IMG/VR virus record: IMGVR_UViG_3300038974_000374
Location: 1 to 58,912 of that record
Length of the DNA stretch: 58,912 nt
Strand: one strand, 5' to 3'
Source of the DNA: a virus
Taxonomy: Duplodnaviria; Caudoviricetes
The position numbers and the translations under genes were made by a program. How positions within the stretch are numbered: position 1 is the first letter of the stretch; each line of letters begins with the position of its first letter. This document shows, piece by piece, positions 8,768 through 43,428 of the stretch. The notes under the pieces were generated by a model. That model was not told the origin of the DNA. It saw only the letters and a program-made list of their open reading frames with translations, and ran no database searches.

Positions 8768-8843
8768 GGTGCATTAGCTCAGTTGGTAGAGCAGGCCTAC
8801 CAATGTGTAGGTATCGTCAGAGGTTCGAGTCCTTTATGCATCA
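8768..8843 (+). tRNA. tRNA-like gene with atypical anticodon arm (identity undetermined)
   Basis: Normal acceptor ggtgcat/atgcatc, D and T arms; anticodon arm gcctac-caatgt-gtaggt has no 7-nt loop. Confidence 0.65.
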
Positions 8844-8990
8844 CAAACAATTAAAATTTATATTTATGAATGATATAGAAAAATATATTATTAAATCTCT
8901 CATAACTAATACAAGGACTGAGAAAGAAATCGGGTTTAACTCTGCGTTAATAACATTGTTAAAAGCAATGGCAGAAGGAATACCGTTACA

Positions 8991-9903: not shown

Positions 9904-10819
9904 ATGGAAGTAGTTATGACAATTCTGTCTTTTTGGGTAGTCGCGTTTGGCGTGCTCGTACTAACCAAATTTTTTGTGAATGTTGGCTCTGACGAGTTAG
10001 CCACTATTGAAAAAAGGTATGTGGGTAAAGAGATGACCAATGGTCGTACTGTAGCTTTAGCTGGAGAAGTTGGTATTCAAGCACGTATCCTGGGACCAGG
10101 TTTACACTTCTTGATTCCTTTCCTTCAAGTAGCTAAAAAACACAAGTACTTAATAATCCGCGATGACGAGATTGGTTTGGTTACCTCAATTACAGGTGCA
10201 CCAATTCCACAAGTCAAATTCATGGCTGAACATGTTGAATGTAACACGTTTCAGGATGGAGAAGCTTTCTTAAAAACGGAGGACAAAAAGGACCACAAAT
10301 TTTAGTAATCCCTCCAGGAGAGCACAGAATTAATCCTCATTTATTTGAGGTAACTGTTGTCAAAGCTCCAGTTGTAGACAAAAACCAAGTTGCCACAGTT
10401 GAAGCTATTGCCGGCGCACCTATTGAACCAGGCCGTATTATGGCTAAGTCAGTAGAGTGCAATCTTTTCCAAGATGGTGTCAAATTCTTAAAGAATGGTG
10501 GACAGAAAGGTCCTCAGGTAGAAATTTTGACTCCAGGTATTTATCGTATTAATACCTATTTATTTCGTATCAAACTTGCCCCTGTGACAATCGTTCCTGG
10601 TGGTGCCATTTGCTTGGTTACTGCAATGGACGGTGCTCAAATTCCGGAAATATCAAACTTATCCCTGAAAACATCATCATTGGTGGTGAAAACGGAGGAT
10701 CGACCGTTGAAAATTTCTTAGGAATTTCAATGATTGAGAAACTTACCGGTAAAGAATTCAATTCAAAGCCTACTGAAGATCCAAAGCCTAAAGTAGCTAA
10801 AAACGAGCCAAAAGCTTAA
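9904..10819 (+). pseudogene. Disrupted SPFH/flotillin-associated membrane protein
   Basis: N-terminal TM, repeated CNxFQDGxxFLKNGGQKGPQ units, frameshift near 10275, jump near 10648 directly to a C-terminal-like IKLIPENIIIGG tail. Confidence 0.55.
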
Positions 10820-13025: not shown

Positions 13026-13182
13026 TACTCCAGTTCCCGCAACAAAGATGAAATAGTCTAGGTCCAGAGGGCTCTAGTAGTACATGAGGAAAGTGACTCT
13101 GGGATTCCCTCCGTGTTTAAAGTGTTGCTGCAAAATGCATCCGCTACTAGTATATCTTTCTTTCTTTTAAAAATTTAACATC

Positions 13183-15091: not shown

Positions 15092-15213
15092 CTTAAAAAT
15101 TATTGAATTAGGCATTCCTGTCTATGTAGCATTCGGAGATTAGTTCAGTTGGTTCAGAATAGATTTTTGATATTTTTAACATATTCGAATTAAAATTTTT
15201 TAATTATTTTTTG

Positions 15214-15221
15214 TAACTTTG
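15214..15221 (+). promoter_or_regulatory. Bacteroidota-type -7 promoter element TAnnTTTG
   Basis: TAACTTTG 22 nt upstream of the HNH ATG; same motif at 10872, 12061, 24739, 37685, 38224, 45430, 49924. Confidence 0.6.
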
Positions 15222-15242
15222 TAAAGTTTAAAAACTTTAAAT

Positions 15243-15806
15243 ATGGAAAAATACAAAAAAGAAGAATTAGAAAAATTAATTTTAGTAGATTGTCTCACAT
15301 ATGATGCAATTGGAGTTAGATATGGAGTTAGTGGAGCAGCAATTAGAAAAGCTGCTAAAAAATTAGGAATAGAATTACCGACTAGAAGAAAAATAAATTC
15401 TAGCGAAACTTTCAATAAAGGTTATAAATATGTAATTAAATATTGTAAAAATTGTAGTTCTGAAATTCCTTCAGAAAATACATTTTGTAACATTGAATGT
15501 CAAAAAGAATATCAATATACACAATATATTGAAAATTGAAAGTCTGGACAAGTCAATGGTATTTCTGGTAAATCAGATATTTCTAATTATATTAGGCATT
15601 ATTTATTCAATAAACATAAAAATAAATGCGAGTTGTGTGGATGAAATTCAATTAATCCGATTACTCAAAATATTCCCTTAGAAATACATCACATAGATGG
15701 AAATTGTTTAAATAATAAAGAAGAAAACTTACAACTTTTATGTCCAAATTGTCATAGTTTAACTGAAAATTATGGAAATTTGAATAAAAACTCAAAAAGA
15801 TATTAA
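15243..15806 (+). CDS. HNH homing endonuclease (TGA read as Trp at 15537 and 15642)
   Basis: IEN(W)KSG...CELCG(W)NSINP...LEIHHIDGN..NNKEENLQLLCPNCHSLT; 187 aa if TGA=Trp. Confidence 0.85.
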
Positions 15807-15876
15807 GGATAAGGTCCGGGGTTCGAATCCCTGATTTCCGACAATTAGATTAGATTAAATTAAAAAAAAAGAAAAG

Positions 15877-16932: not shown

Positions 16933-17210
16933 CCCAATAATCAAAATTTAATTATGACACTGGTGGCAGCCGAAGCGTAAAATGCATCAATGGTTAGGCA
17001 ATGGGAACGATAAAAGAGAGATACCTCGCATCCAGTAGGTTAGATTCAAAGCTCTTATTTTGATTATTAAAGATGTGCCTCGCATAGCCTCTGTTGTTGA
17101 AATATACATTATGTAGCGATGATCCCCAGTTACTAGTTGCAACTAGTTGGTTAAAAGCCAAACTGCGCGTAGATGGGATAGTGAGTAGTCTAATAAATTA
17201 CTCACCTAAG

Positions 17211-17283: not shown

Positions 17284-17480
17284 CATGATACTCAAGCTTA
17301 ATTATTTTATAATCTTACGGTAACCAATCCTGAAGAAAGTGTAGCAAATAACTACTATAGAATAATGCTTACTGGAGTTTGCATAATGAGATTTATTACT
17401 ATAGCTCTTATAAATTGAAATATGCGGGGAGTAGAAGGGAACCCTATTCTACATCAAAGAAATAATGGTTCTCATTTCTT

Positions 17481-17555: not shown

Positions 17556-17979
17556 CAATGACAATAAAGTCATTATTAAAAAATGAGGAATTATGAAAAA
17601 AGTATTTTTGTAGATTTTTAATTGAGGGTCTCCATAATAATTTATTACTTAAGTATGTATTACAAAATAGTAGATAAAAAATTAATAAATTATATATTAC
17701 AATATTATGGAAACTTTTAAACAAGAAATCAAAAAATTAGCAGAAGAACAAAGAAATCTTAAAAATTTAAGAAAATCAGTAAATTATCAAGGGTAAGAAC
17801 AATGGAACCATGGCAAGCACAAATGAAACATTATTTTAATGGAAAACAACTTAGAATTATGTATGCCGCATATGGTATAATTAGAGGTAAATCTTATTCT
17901 CAAATTGAAAATCATTATTCTGAAGAAATGCACCCTCTTAAACAATTTGATAATCAAATTCAAAAATTGGTTGAAAAAT

Positions 17980-18273
17980 ATGCAAAAGAAGTTGTATGTT
18001 CTGATAAGTAATGATCTTGACCCTATTTATGAATGTGTTCAAGGTGGTCACGCCGTGGCACAATGGTTATTAGATAATAAAGATTCACAAACTTGGAATA
18101 ATCAATATTTAATTTATTTAATTGCAGATGTAAAGAAATGGGAGTTTAAACTAAATTCAATGGGTATTTCCCATTCTTGCTTTTATGAACCTGATTTAAA
18201 TAATGTACTTACTGCAATTGCAGTTGAAGCTCCAAGTGAAATTTTCAAAAAACTTCAACCAATTAAATTTTAA
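17980..18273 (+). CDS. Peptidyl-tRNA hydrolase 2-like protein
   Basis: KLYVLI..DL...VQGGHAVAQW...FYEPDLNNVLTAIA. Confidence 0.7.
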   Translation: MQKKLYVLISNDLDPIYECVQGGHAVAQWLLDNKDSQTWNNQYLIYLIADVKKWEFKLNSMGISHSCFYEPDLNNVLTAIAVEAPSEIFKKLQPIKF

Positions 18274-18411
18274 TTGGAATATAGGTGTTATCCCAAAAGG
18301 ACAGAATGTATGGCAAAGTAAGGGAAACCTGAAGAGTTAAGGTGAAATACCTTAAGAGCGGAGATGTGAGCTAGCAGAGCCCATACGAATTATCTCTAAC
18401 GCCTATTTTAT

Positions 18412-18484
18412 ACTCTATTAGCTCAGTGGGAGAGCAGCAGATTCTAACTCCGTGTTGTCACAGGTTCGATCCCTGTATAGGGTA
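18412..18484 (+). tRNA. Amber suppressor tRNA (anticodon CTA)
   Basis: actctat/atagggt acceptor, D arm gctc/gagc, anticodon arm gcaga-ttCTAac-tccgt (one mismatch), T arm acagg-ttcgatc-cctgt. Confidence 0.8.
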
Positions 18485-18705
18485 CAAATTATAAAATAAT
18501 ATCCGAAATTGATCGGTAAGACAGGTAAGAGGGGAACCCAATGTCGACTTGTAATTAGGTAATGAGTCCGAATATCCTTTAATAGGTTTAGTCCCGTGGA
18601 TAACATGCGTGTAAATGTCCCTTAATTATTTTATAATTTACTGGAAGTAATCCGGCTGGATGAGGGGATGTTTGTTTATAAATTATAATAAAATAATTTA
18701 ATTCT

Positions 18706-19089
18706 GTGAAAATAAATTGTAAAAACTGCAATAAATTAATTGATAGTAGAAGTATTTCTGGTTTATGTTTAAACTGTAGAAAAGAAAAAGATGCATTAGA
18801 TAAAATAAATCATTGAAAATTAACAGGAGATACCGGTTGTGGAGTTAATACTACATTAAAAAATTGTATAAGAACTTATATTTTAAATAAACAAGATAAT
18901 AAATGTAAAATTTGAGGATTATCTACAAATTGAAATAATAAATCATTAAATTTAATTTTGGATCATATAGATGGAAATGCATCTAATAATCATGAAGAAA
19001 ATTTAAGATTAATTTGTCCTAATTGTGATTCTCAATTAGATACATATAAATCTAAAAACAAACATTCAGCTAGAACAGCTATGAATTAG
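18706..19089 (+). CDS. HNH homing endonuclease (in-frame TGA at 18814, 18913, 18931); absent from the ORF track
   Basis: GTG start; CKNC..CLNC; INH(W)KLTG; KCKI(*)G; TN(W)NNKSLNLILDHIDGNASNNHEENLRLICPNCDSQL. Confidence 0.8.
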
Positions 19090-19177
19090 GAAGTATACTC
19101 AAATTGGTTTAAGAGGATAGTCTTGAAAACTATTAGGTCAGGAAACTGGCGTGTGGGTTCGAGTCCTACTGCTTCCG
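19089..19177 (+). tRNA. tRNA-Ser(TGA)
   Basis: Long variable arm, loop ctTGAaa, G73. Confidence 0.9.
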
Positions 19178-19313
19178 CGCTTAACATCCCGGTATATAAA
19201 TTCTAAACTGCTGACCTATACGAGACAGTAATCCGGAAAGTAAATTATAGGTAAAAGTGTAGATAATGCAGTCCATACCACCTCAGGTGACGAAAAACTA
19301 CACAGAGGTAATT

Positions 19314-24601: not shown

Positions 24602-24639
24602 TTCTGCCGGGATGGTGGAATGGTAGACACGAAGGACTT

Positions 24640-25409
24640 AGATATAACTTTTTTTGTAAAGTTATTACCGTAAAGTATTCATGAAGTCTATATTTTTAAG
24701 ATTATTATATTTTATTATAATACATGAAAAAAATTTTATATCTTTGTGTTTTAAACAAATAAATTTTATGAGTAAGAAATACACGGATTTAGAACTAATT
24801 GAAGCAATTAAAACAAGTTTTTCAATTGCAGAAGTATGTAGAAAAGTTGGATTGAAACCAGTTGGTGGAAATTATAAAACTATTCACAATAAAATAGATA
24901 AATTAAAATTAGATACCTCACATTTTACAGGTCAAGGATGAAATATTGGATTAAAATTCCAACCTTCTCCAGCAAGACCTTTAGATGAATATCTTGTAAT
25001 AAATTCAACATATCAATCTTTTAAATTAGCAAAAAGGTTATTTAAAGAAGGGTATAAAGAAAAAGTATGCGAATGTTGTAATAATACAAAATGAATGGAT
25101 AAACCTATTCCTTTAGAGTTACATCATATAACCGGAATTAATAATGATCATAGATTGGAAAATCTACAGATGTTATGCCCAAATTGCCATGCTTTTACAG
25201 ATAATTATAGAGGTAAGAATACAGGTATGAGTGCACAAGAAGAAATTCTTGATGTAGAACAACCCTAATTCGGGGAAGGTGTAAGTTAATAGCTTACAAT
25301 AATCCCGAGCTAAAGCATAGAAATATGTAAATGTGTAGAGACTATATAGGTTGCACCTAAGGAGAAATCTATGGTGAAGAGATAGTCCAAGCAGCAGTAA
25401 TGCTGTATG
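24640..25409 (+). mobile_element. Group I intron in the tRNA-Leu anticodon (U34/A35)
   Basis: Upstream exon ends in U, intron ends in G; core elements aattcggggaa, aatcccgagc, gtagagactata, aagagatagtcc. Confidence 0.88.
24768..25268 (+). CDS. Intron-encoded HNH endonuclease (TGA=Trp at 24939 and 25092)
   Basis: DTSHFTGQG(W)N...CECCNNTK(W)MDKPIPLELHHITGINNDHRLENLQMLCPNCHAFTDNYRGKN; 166 aa. Confidence 0.88.
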
Positions 25410-25520
25410 AAAATCCTTTGAGCAGTAATGCTCGTGCGGGTTCGAGTCCCGCTCCCGGTACACTGATATAAATCTTATTTATTTAAGTTGGCTTCGTTGG
25501 TTAAAAGGAATCAACACTAC

Positions 25521-41261: not shown

Positions 41262-43428
41262 TGGGTGTAAAGCAATTATTAAAAAATATAGAAGAAGGAA
41301 GAAAAGGTAGAAATATTGGTATTAGTACAGGATTACCTACTATTGATTCGATTATATACGGAATACAAAGAAAGTATTTATATACTATTGGTGCAGATAC
41401 CTCGGGTTAAGGAAATTTAAAAACAATAAGTATGATTGGAGTTTATAAAATTATAAACAAAACAAATGGAAAATGTTATATAGGCTCATCTATAAATATA
41501 AATAATAGGTGAGCAAAACATAAAGCACTTCTTAGACATAATAAACATGAAAATAAGAAACTTCAAAATGCTTGAAATAAGTATGGAGAAGAAAATTTTC
41601 AATTTATTGTGATAAAAGAATGTGATAATGAGATGCTTTTAGAAGAAGAACAAAGTTATTTAGATGAATTAGGAGCGCAAGATTTTATTAATAAAATTAA
41701 TAGAAATTTTGATAAAATTTGCTACAATGTTTCAGCTATAGCTAACACCTGCATAATAACAGAAGAAGTTAGAGCTAAAATAAAAGAGTCATTAAGAATA
41801 AAAAGAGAACAAGGATTATTGTTAAAAAGTAATACTAAAAAATGTTACCAATATAATAGATTTACTGGAGAATTAATAAAAGAATGGGATATTATAAACG
41901 ATGCCAATCGCCATTATAACACTCCTAATAATAAAACTTCTGTAATACAAAGAAACTTGTGAGGAGACACTACTACTGCCTTTGATTCTTTATGAACATT
42001 TGAGCCAATAGAATTTGTGTGAGCAAGAGCTCCTCAAAAAAGAACTACTTTAGTAGTTCAAAATATGGTAGAAAAAACATATGCTTTTTATGATAGTGTT
42101 CCTATCTTCTTAAAAGCTATAGGATTAAATCCTAATTCTAGAATAACAATAACTAAATGTATTGATAAACAAATTCCATTTAAAGGTATTTATAATTGTT
42201 TTAAAATTGAAGCCCCTGTCATTTATGACAGAAAACCATTTGAATTGCTGGGAACTCGCGAAGATATAATAACTAAAACGAATGAAGAAATTCTTAACGT
42301 AAATGTTAAAAATATTATATTATGTGACAATCAGCAGCCAATCTCCTAAGTCATTAGATATGGAGAAGGTTCAACGACTATCCCTGGAGAGGGAGTAGGA
42401 TTCAAGAGAATTCGAAGCGGATGGTAAGATTAAAAATCTTAATGATATAGTCTGGACTTATATGAAAGTATAAGAGTGTGTGCGGAATCGGCACTCACAC
42501 AACATAATCGGGTAAAACCTCTTTTGCAATAGACGTATTTGTGTATAACTTGTTGAAAAATAGACAAGATAAAAATGTATCAATCCTTTATTATTCCTTT
42601 GAGATGTCGGCAGATATTTTATTTGCTAAGTTATTATCTTTACATATCTTTGATACATATGGAGAAGTAGTGACTTATGAAGACATTTTATCCTTAACTA
42701 ATCCAATCTCTGAAGAACATCAAGACCTCGTGAGGAAGTCTGAAGATTGGCTATACGAACTCCAAGAACACCTAACTATTTATGACAAAGCTTTGTCGCC
42801 AAACGGAATATACGCAACTTGTAAAGAGTGGCTAAAACAATTTGGGACATTCGTTGAATTAGAGGAGCATCGGGAGGATTATATAGATAATGACCCTAAT
42901 AGGTATAAAGTGGCAATAATTGACCACGTTGGACTTATTACTGGTCCGGGATCTAAAAAAGAAAAAATAGACTTAACCGCAGATTATTTTATCTATTTTA
43001 GAAATAAGTGTTCCATGACTGGTGTATTTATTCAGCAATTGAATAGAAATGCTAAAAGTATGGAAAGAAAAACTAACGGATATGAACTTATTCAGTTAGA
43101 TGATTTCAAAGACACATCAGGAACTTTGGATGCGTCCGAAGTAGTAATTGCTCTCTTTTATCCATATAGAGAGAAAATAGCAAGGTGCGAGGGCTACCCT
43201 ATCCAAAATGTTCTCAAAAAGCGATTTAGATTAGTTCAAATTTTAAAGAACAGATATGGTATAGCTGATGCTTCAAAAGGTACTTCATTTTTTGGAGAAA
43301 TTGGAATGTATCGTGAGATACCAAAACCAGATGAAATTGGCGATTATGAACCATATTTATCTTTAAAATATATTAAACCAGATGAAAATTATACAGATGA
43401 AAATGACAACAATGTATTTAATTTTTAA
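41261..43428 (+). CDS. DnaB-like replicative helicase, spliced (exons 41261-41407, 42511-43428)
   Basis: GISTGL, spliced Walker A ADTSG|GKTS, SFEM, IIDHVG, QQLNR, DFKDTSG, LKNRYG; 354 aa. Confidence 0.88.
41408..42510 (+). mobile_element. Group I intron in DnaB Walker A
   Basis: U at exon end, terminal G; core gaattgctgggaa, aatcagcagcc, ggttcaacgacta, gatatagtctg. Confidence 0.88.
41432..42349 (+). CDS. Intron-encoded GIY-YIG endonuclease (five in-frame TGA read as Trp)
   Basis: IGVYKIINKTNGKCYIGSS..NR(W)AKH...LQNA(W)NKYGEENF; TGA at 41510, 41573, 41960, 41993, 42020; joins ORF-track fragments 41609 and 42065 into 305 aa. Confidence 0.85.

Follow-up and report, generated by a model that had tools for sequence, protein, structure and literature searches.

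The 5′ leaders of bacterial tRNAs are cut off by RNase P, and RNAs that carry a stem at the 3′ end are protected by it from exonucleases. Some of the closest described counterparts of the locus considered here are found in phage T4, whose tRNA region makes a pair of small RNAs, RNAC and RNAD, of unknown role according to the available parts of two publications (PMC3014915, PMC9697503). As for suppressor tRNAs, the available part of a preprint on phage recoding (bioRxiv 10.1101/2021.08.26.457843) describes no RNA that gates a suppressor, and the words "non-coding" and "riboswitch" are absent from it, in a search that was not aimed at suppressor-tRNA leaders; the term "peptidyl-tRNA hydrolase" is absent from that part too.

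The DNA analysed here (the window) is the whole of the IMG/VR virus record IMGVR_UViG_3300038974_000374, 58,912 bases of about 30% GC with an estimated completeness of 34%. Between about 6.9 and 25.6 kb, its forward strand carries an array that comprises a tmRNA and roughly two dozen genes for tRNAs, in which tandem tRNAs lie 5–9 nt apart (ARAGORN). Within this array, a small gene on the forward strand (17980–18273, with its TAA stop at 18271–18273) encodes a protein of 97 aa with the fold of peptidyl-tRNA hydrolase 2 (PTH2), and a tRNA with the anticodon CTA, that is, an amber suppressor (hereafter tRNA(CUA)), occupies 18412–18485 on the same strand (ARAGORN; Rfam RF00005, 52.6 bits). The 126 bases between them, at 18281–18406 and directly 3′ of the gene, are the subject of this report. 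A preliminary description, made from the letters of the sequence, had taken them to be a structured RNA that might control the release or timing of the suppressor or else be an independent non-coding RNA.

Anatomy and Folding of the Element

All of the helices in the preliminary description are present in the sequence where it had placed them. The element is closed by P1, in which ATAGGTGTTA (18281–18290) pairs with TAACGCCTAT (18397–18406), both on the forward strand, to give 10 bp, one of them a T.G wobble, with a mean pair probability of 0.79–0.92; this stem encloses 106 nt. As had also been described, it ends 5 nt from the suppressor tRNA, the linker being a single-stranded TTTAT (18407–18411) between P1 and the tRNA. 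Inside P1, and on the same strand, lie P2, where GTATGG (18308–18313) forms 6 bp with CCATAC (18381–18386); the P3 hairpin AGG-GAAA-CCT (18321–18330), of 3 bp with a GAAA loop and a probability of 0.81–0.83; and the P4 hairpin TTAAGGT-GAAAT-ACCTTAA (18337–18355), of 7 bp with a GAAAT loop and a probability of 0.87–0.88. P4 may equally be read as a 6-bp stem with a G-C closing pair and a 7-nt loop, TGAAATA. In the Boltzmann ensemble, P1, P3, and P4 stay at 0.79–0.92 as the length folded is raised from 126 to 721 nt (with flanks of up to 300 nt). P2 is weak (0.34–0.41), and it has a near-equal and mutually exclusive competitor on the forward strand (18361–18365 with 18392–18396, probability 0.38–0.44). 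The element is non-coding, with TAA stops in all three forward frames, and a scan of 18274–18411 found neither a sigma-70-like promoter on the forward strand nor a terminator-like site.

The minimum free energy of the element, −28.7 kcal/mol, compares with −25.5 ± 3.5 for shuffled sequences (z = −0.92, and −0.91 in a repeat run), 31 of 200 of which are as stable. Likewise, a helix of at least 10 bp arises in 34 of 300 dinucleotide shuffles of the element, and 7.7% of 600 random positions in the window have a helix at least that long ending 2–9 nt upstream of them. The base composition is another matter: the GC fraction of 0.421, against 0.305 ± 0.052, is reached by 1.8% of 5459 non-tRNA windows of 126 nt. 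The fold is no better than chance, and the GC composition is beyond chance. The description of a structured RNA is partly upheld, in that the element is non-coding, GC-enriched, and foldable as described, whereas its energy and the length of its helix are at the chance level. A structured RNA at this junction is plausible because a spacer with covariation support occupies the same junction in a sister lineage (see below). A processing stem of the rRNA kind, formed between the element and the 220 nt 3′ of the tRNA, was considered and rejected (−49.7 against −50.4 ± 5.0 for shuffles).

Other ORF-free gaps in the tRNA array (18486–18620, 19179–19313, 13026–13182, 10306–10439, and 16933–17210) are GC-rich too, at 0.38–0.44 against a background of 0.30; none of them beats its shuffles in folding or has a match in the related loci.

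Tests Against Known RNA Families

The check that the preliminary description had proposed, a cmscan search, yielded no family for the element at E ≤ 10 with the 4227 models of Rfam 15. In the larger region 17950–19100, the tRNA alone scores, everything else being at 12–21 bits against thresholds of 34–105, and when 148 nt were searched alone, the best match was to ar15, on the minus strand, at 14.1 bits against 40.

Several particular candidates were tried and rejected. The element is not itself a tRNA, since RF00005 has no match over 18281–18406 at E ≤ 10 and ARAGORN, run with and without introns, finds none on the forward strand; nor does it look like a decayed one, the best BLAST match to the 204 tRNAs of the window and the related loci being at E = 9. 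None of the self-cleaving ribozymes (hammerhead, twister, pistol, hatchet, and HDV-like) is matched in Rfam. The hammerhead core consists of CUGANGA ... GAAA, and, by eye, CUGAAGA does sit before P4, followed after P4 by GAG rather than GAA. A riboswitch or a T-box leader is also without an Rfam match, and there is no terminator-like site in 18274–18411. An intrinsic terminator is rejected by the same scan, P1 enclosing 106 nt and the TTTAT tail containing only four T. A group I intron (RF00028) is not matched at the element, although the model scores 83 bits at 42167–42474; the gene and the tRNA on either side are complete, and 126 nt is below the usual size of such introns. RNase P RNA was suggested by a resemblance to GGTGAAA...AAGAGC and has no match in the whole window at E ≤ 1. 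The P4 strands of RNase P RNA are GAGGAAAGUCC ... ACAGAA..GGCUUA, and this pair of motifs was found in one of the related loci only (L041, where the strands are also seen in the alignment described below) and is absent from the window. Finally, a repeated or mobile element of the MITE type is rejected in that neither the window nor any of 39 related loci contains a further copy, and the best match in four related full records is at E = 0.34.

The tRNA and YrlA (Y RNA-like) families nevertheless invite a comparison. Like them, the element has an end stem of at least 7 bp and a small first hairpin at the place of the D arm. The T arm of tRNAs has a G-C-closed loop of 7 nt in which position 1 is T and position 5 is A, and the element has, in P4, a G-C-closed hairpin with a 7-nt loop that has T at 1 and A at 5. 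Unlike them, it has no anticodon arm, its T-arm-like hairpin is not beside the 3′ strand of the end stem, and no Rfam match is found at E ≤ 10.

The Search for Relatives

A single-sequence model of the element with its four helices (R1) matched only itself among 25 sources, so that the co-occurrence with suppressor tRNAs that had been put forward as a check was not borne out: an element homolog stands beside another suppressor in none of the 24 related loci. In four related full records, R1 found nothing convincing (0 of 4; best 13.9 bits, E 0.34). BLAST of the element with 7-nt words against 39 related loci gave nothing under E = 1.3; a 12-nt match to the spacer of L038, at E = 25 in a small database, is due to chance. 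A distant BLAST search with 18270–18700 against 50,697 phage records matched the tRNA part only, and the phage records, like the viral and genome collections, may omit records close to the window. Scans of the viral collection for the exact 24 nt of P4 and for 19 nt around P3 gave no match, and the three matches to 17 nt located 3′ of P4 all lie in unrelated coding sequence. A pattern scan with 25 nt of the suppressor tRNA was equally empty, as was a scan of genome contigs with 23 nt of P4 and its flank; a scan of the genome contigs anchored on the protein returned one locus, with the match position as in L016. The element is an orphan; at most, it belongs to a loose group of folded spacers that the tRNA arrays of phages contain.

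The PTH2-Fold Gene and Its Suppressor tRNA

The AlphaFold model of the 97-aa protein has a pLDDT of 90.7, and its top Foldseek matches in the PDB all belong to the PTH2 family (2zv3, 1xty, 3erj, and 1q7s, with TM scores of 0.66–0.78). Pfam PF01981 is matched by 5 of 14 homologs (best E 3.4e-4), and the window's own copy has no Pfam match. With this protein as an anchor, 6 viral and 33 metagenome loci were fetched, at 32–65% protein identity. The next tRNA after the gene has the anticodon CTA in 31 of these 39 loci, which points to one conserved unit, and the suppressor tRNAs concerned are of different types across the loci. As to the remaining eight, at least four are cut by contig ends (the contigs of L017, L020, and L028 run out within 82 nt, and that of L027 does so inside the gene); in L006, a tRNA-like sequence with the anticodon CTA was seen by eye and missed by ARAGORN, L023 has a partial tRNA, and L019 and L032 differ. 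In 9 of the 39 loci, a single TAG lies in frame within the PTH2-fold gene itself; three positions are involved in all, and an in-frame TGA or TAA never occurs.

The length of the junction between gene and tRNA(CUA) was compared in 20 distinct relatives. It is 2–35 nt in 12 of them, 76–196 nt without an ORF in four (L005, L003, L038, and L011), and 419–520 nt with an extra ORF in the other four; such ORFs are found in L015, L025, L026, and L041. In the 12 relatives with spacers of up to 35 nt, the suppressor works without the element, which is therefore not needed. The junction of L038 contains an intron-bearing tRNA (2778–2902), with an intron of 53 nt in the anticodon loop (ARAGORN; Rfam, 38.6 bits).

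A strong hairpin ends 3–6 nt before the suppressor tRNA in 10 of 21 distinct loci, and P1 ends at 5 nt. Compared with 40 other tRNAs, however, suppressor tRNAs are not preceded by significantly more frequent or stronger leader hairpins (Mann–Whitney p = 0.49 and 0.21), and the tRNAs of the window, taken as a group, have a mean best upstream helix of 7.2 bp against 7.1 bp at random positions.

A Folded Spacer in a Sister Lineage

Two of the related loci, L003 (2823–2941; L009 and L010 are identical) and L011 (1587–1703), have a spacer of 119 nt at the same junction of gene and tRNA(CUA). RNAalifold gives this spacer 27 pairs, of which 6 are changed on both sides, in an alignment of two sequences only; it is closed by a stem of 8–10 bp that stops 9 nt short of the tRNA, and Rfam has no family for it at E ≤ 1. 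A model built from the two sequences (R2) did not match the window element when run with filters off at E ≤ 10, nor did it match any other locus, and, conversely, R1 does not find the L003/L011 spacer. The spacer of L003 is dispensable too, since L004, a close relative, has a junction of 13 nt. L004 contains, at 1303–1691, three weak tRNA matches of 110–116 nt, which are tRNA genes with short insertions.

The two elements are alike in their place, in their similar size, in being closed by a stem, and in having a G-C-closed hairpin with the loop TGAAANN; they are unlike in the order and number of their hairpins, and compensatory changes are seen only in L003/L011. G-C-closed TGAAANN hairpins of at least 4 bp occur three times in 231 kb (the window and the loci, both strands), namely in P4 of the window, in L003, and in L011; permuted loops gave 0–2 on the forward strand, and the motif had been noticed before it was tested. 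Elsewhere in the viral collection, the same hairpin is found in the variable arms of tRNA-Ser, in leader hairpins of other tRNAs, and in coding sequence. As the marker of a wider family, the GGTGAAA hairpin was rejected: two gapped scans gave 30 and 38 loci, mostly unrelated, with the L003 contig as the sole true relative. The shared TGAAANN hairpin is a hint, and no more, of a common origin or a common use. It seems very unlikely that stem-closed leaders with a T-arm-like UGAAANN hairpin form a fast-evolving class, counted here as two members (the window element and that of L003/L011), which would set the onset of amber read-through by docking on, or competing with, the suppressor tRNA or the enzymes that process it.

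Close Strains and RNA Libraries

Parts of the stretch analysed occur in 20 public sequencing runs, mostly from wastewater and bioreactors, and the contigs of four of these (X4, X5, X6, and X8) were compared with it. The element is present in X4, X6, and X8; the contigs of X5 and X6 cover only parts of the stretch. An apparent joint from 18120 to 18419 in X5 rests on 29–33 nt, in a contig whose likeness to the window is at the level of another organism, and no conclusion is based on it. The variant 18401 G>A is found in all three covering runs (X4, X6, and X8) and turns the T.G wobble of P1 into a T-A pair, while the G-C pair 18341–18351 of P4 is lost through 18341 G>A, a variant confined to X4. 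X4 has 2 SNPs in the 126 nt of the element and 4 in the 294 nt of the gene; these densities match, and no difference in constraint between element and gene is visible.

A contig from the X8 RNA library, at a depth of 2.8, runs unbroken over 18251–18434 and thus takes in the end of the gene, the element, and the start of the tRNA; a second contig from the same library covers 18458–18620. These contigs are compatible with a single transcript, bearing in mind that they show neither ends nor strand and that RNA libraries can hold DNA. The end of the second contig at 18620 is just short of a 34-nt repeat, of which one copy (18621–18653) lies after the suppressor tRNA and the other (17297–17330), 85% identical, after tRNA-Phe; the latter copy overlaps a promoter-like site (10 of 12 matches).

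Other RNAs and Introns of the Array and Related Loci

The neighbourhood of the element offers leads of greater promise. Three HNH endonuclease genes (15243–15806, 18706–19089, and 24681–25268), with weak Pfam HNH matches, each contain two or three in-frame TGA codons at places where Trp fits (e.g., ...CGW-NS...HHIDGN), and the window has no tRNA with the anticodon TCA. The sequence of X4 diverges from that of the window at 18668, and the copy at 18706–19089 is therefore probably a variable insertion. ARAGORN, run with introns, gives two split tRNA genes, Ile(GAT) and a class II Ser/Leu-like one (15134–15842 and 24606–25461), with insertions of 613 and 768 nt that hold two of these HNH genes; the two HNH regions are alike at 64.5% over 220 nt. 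After the ORF of the second insertion, 142 nt (25269–25410) look like a group I core, for which Rfam makes no call; we take the resemblance to lie in a AAGAGATAGTCC stretch and in the final G before the 3′ exon. A group I intron lies at 42167–42474, with 83 bits where the gathering threshold is 50 (E 1.2e-19); it came up in a permissive search only, having been missed by the fast-filter gathering run, and the frame around it contains in-frame TGA codons.

Two further features of the window are a tRNA with the four-base anticodon AATG in an enlarged loop (8768–8844; ARAGORN, with 44 bits for the Rfam tRNA model) and a weak YrlA match (2451–2574; 30.1 bits against 69, E 0.016) in an ORF-free gap of 454 nt. 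Among the related loci, L041 has in its tRNA array, 190 nt 3′ of the suppressor tRNA, an RNA of about 224 nt (2126–2349) that gives an end-to-end alignment with the archaeal RNase P model (42.9 bits where the gathering threshold is 84; E 3e-11). In it, the P4 strands (GAGGAAGUUC... and ACAGAAUCCUGGCUA) are preserved and the specificity domain is much reduced; it may represent an RNase P RNA in miniature, carried on a 2.4-kb contig that is phage-like.

What the Element May Be

The observations comprise the anatomy of the element, a conserved pairing of gene and tRNA with no promoter- or terminator-like site between them, and a long spacer that relatives dispense with. The explanation that we favour, tentatively and with somewhat less than even confidence, is that the element is a lineage-specific transcribed spacer in which the untranslated 3′ tail of the PTH2-fold gene doubles as the 5′ leader of the suppressor tRNA. 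The gene, the spacer, and tRNA(CUA) would be carried on one transcript of the tRNA array, and host RNase P would cut at 18412, the first base of the tRNA; this would leave an upstream RNA that ends in the 10-bp P1 stem and a 5-nt tail, and the terminal stem would both slow 3′-to-5′ exonucleases and keep the leader from pairing with the body of the tRNA. The 106-nt interior (P2–P4) would be an expansion peculiar to the lineage, with no role of its own assigned to it. Such a leader is suggested by the conserved succession of gene and tRNA(CUA) in 31 of 39 loci, by the lack of promoter- and terminator-like sites in 18274–18411, and by junctions that usually measure 2–35 nt and have, in 10 of 21 loci, a hairpin 3–6 nt before the tRNA, as P1 is. 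Moreover, of all the helices P1 is the most robust, and the pairing in it is improved by the one variant that is common (18401 G>A); the X8 contig is unbroken from the end of the gene into the tRNA; and a GC fraction of 0.42 in a genome of 30% GC accords with an RNA that is transcribed and folded. Against this stand a fold that is not above that of shuffles, a 10-bp stem that would be this close at 7.7% of random positions, leader hairpins that are not significantly more common or stronger than those before 40 other tRNAs, and window tRNAs that, as a group, do not beat random positions in their helices. The X8 contig has a depth of 2.8, is without ends, and comes from a type of library that can hold DNA, and 18341 G>A breaks a pair of P4. 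Since a hairpin of 3 to 9 bp would suffice, a leader also leaves the 106-nt interior unexplained.

The element could instead be functionless filler, the decaying remnant of an insertion (an old tRNA, a piece of an intron, or a mobile cassette) whose helices are the chance products of an inverted repeat. Such filler would be at home in a junction where DNA is often gained and lost, its length in relatives ranging from 2 to 520 nt and some junctions containing ORFs or an intron-bearing tRNA, and it would agree with an orphan whose energy and helix statistics are at the chance level and whose SNP density in X4 matches that of the neighbouring gene; yet we consider it unlikely, given that nothing like the element was found among 204 tRNAs (best E = 9) or by the Rfam tRNA model (E ≤ 10), that so high a GC content should decay in a genome of 30% GC, and that P1, P3, and P4 are robust to the flanking context. 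The same GC content, in the top 1.8%, would suit an independent small stable RNA, freed from the precursor of the tRNA array by the tRNA-processing enzymes in the manner of T4 RNAC and RNAD (the precedent being the two small RNAs of the T4 tRNA region, as far as the available parts of PMC3014915 and PMC9697503 describe them). A domain closed by a stem, with its 3′ end 5 nt from the tRNA where tandem tRNAs of the window are separated by 5–9 nt, is what such processing might leave, and the sister lineage has a stem-closed spacer of 119 nt in the same place, with compensatory changes in 6 of 27 pairs and with the G-C-closed TGAAANN hairpin that is common to both elements and occurs nowhere else in 231 kb. 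This second alternative is nonetheless quite doubtful, as BLAST, R1, R2, and the pattern scans found no homolog, the fold is at the chance level, the element is known here from assembled contigs alone, and hairpins of the TGAAANN type recur in unrelated settings of the viral collection. The preliminary description had also raised the control of suppressor release or timing. In such a cis-acting gate, the fold of the leader, or the exchange of P2 for its competing helix and back, would time the release of the suppressor by RNase P and hence amber read-through. The element does adjoin a suppressor, its two inner helices are mutually exclusive at near-equal probability, and two lineages have structured leaders at the same junction. 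But 12 of 20 distinct related junctions lack the element, only 2–35 nt separating gene and tRNA in them, and no homolog of it was found at other suppressors; the two structured leaders are not detectably homologous (R2, E ≤ 10, filters off); no riboswitch, T-box, or ribozyme family is matched; and no in-frame TAG is seen in the genes of the window, so that a need for timing is not evident here. We regard the gate as highly improbable. Were it real, such a gate would be the first known RNA device for timing the switch of a phage's genetic code.

Comparison with Known Systems

For the present, the element adds to the unexplained folded spacers of phage tRNA arrays, and its value is mainly that of a pointer to its neighbourhood: a conserved hydrolase-fold gene paired with a suppressor, tRNA genes split by introns that carry endonucleases, and endonuclease genes that contain TGA codons in frame. 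With RNAC and RNAD, it has no visible sequence relation, and it is known here from contigs alone; it does resemble them, as they appear in the available parts of the publications, in being a non-coding RNA of about 120–140 nt among phage tRNA genes on the same strand (PMC3014915, PMC9697503). Compared with most of the related junctions, which measure 2–35 nt, it is long (126–138 nt) and multi-branched. RNase P processing at this locus is presumed, and it is with the leaders of bacterial and phage tRNA precursors, and with mRNA-tRNA co-transcripts cut by RNase P, that the element shares its position directly 5′ of a tRNA, its short linker, and its stable helix a few nucleotides upstream.
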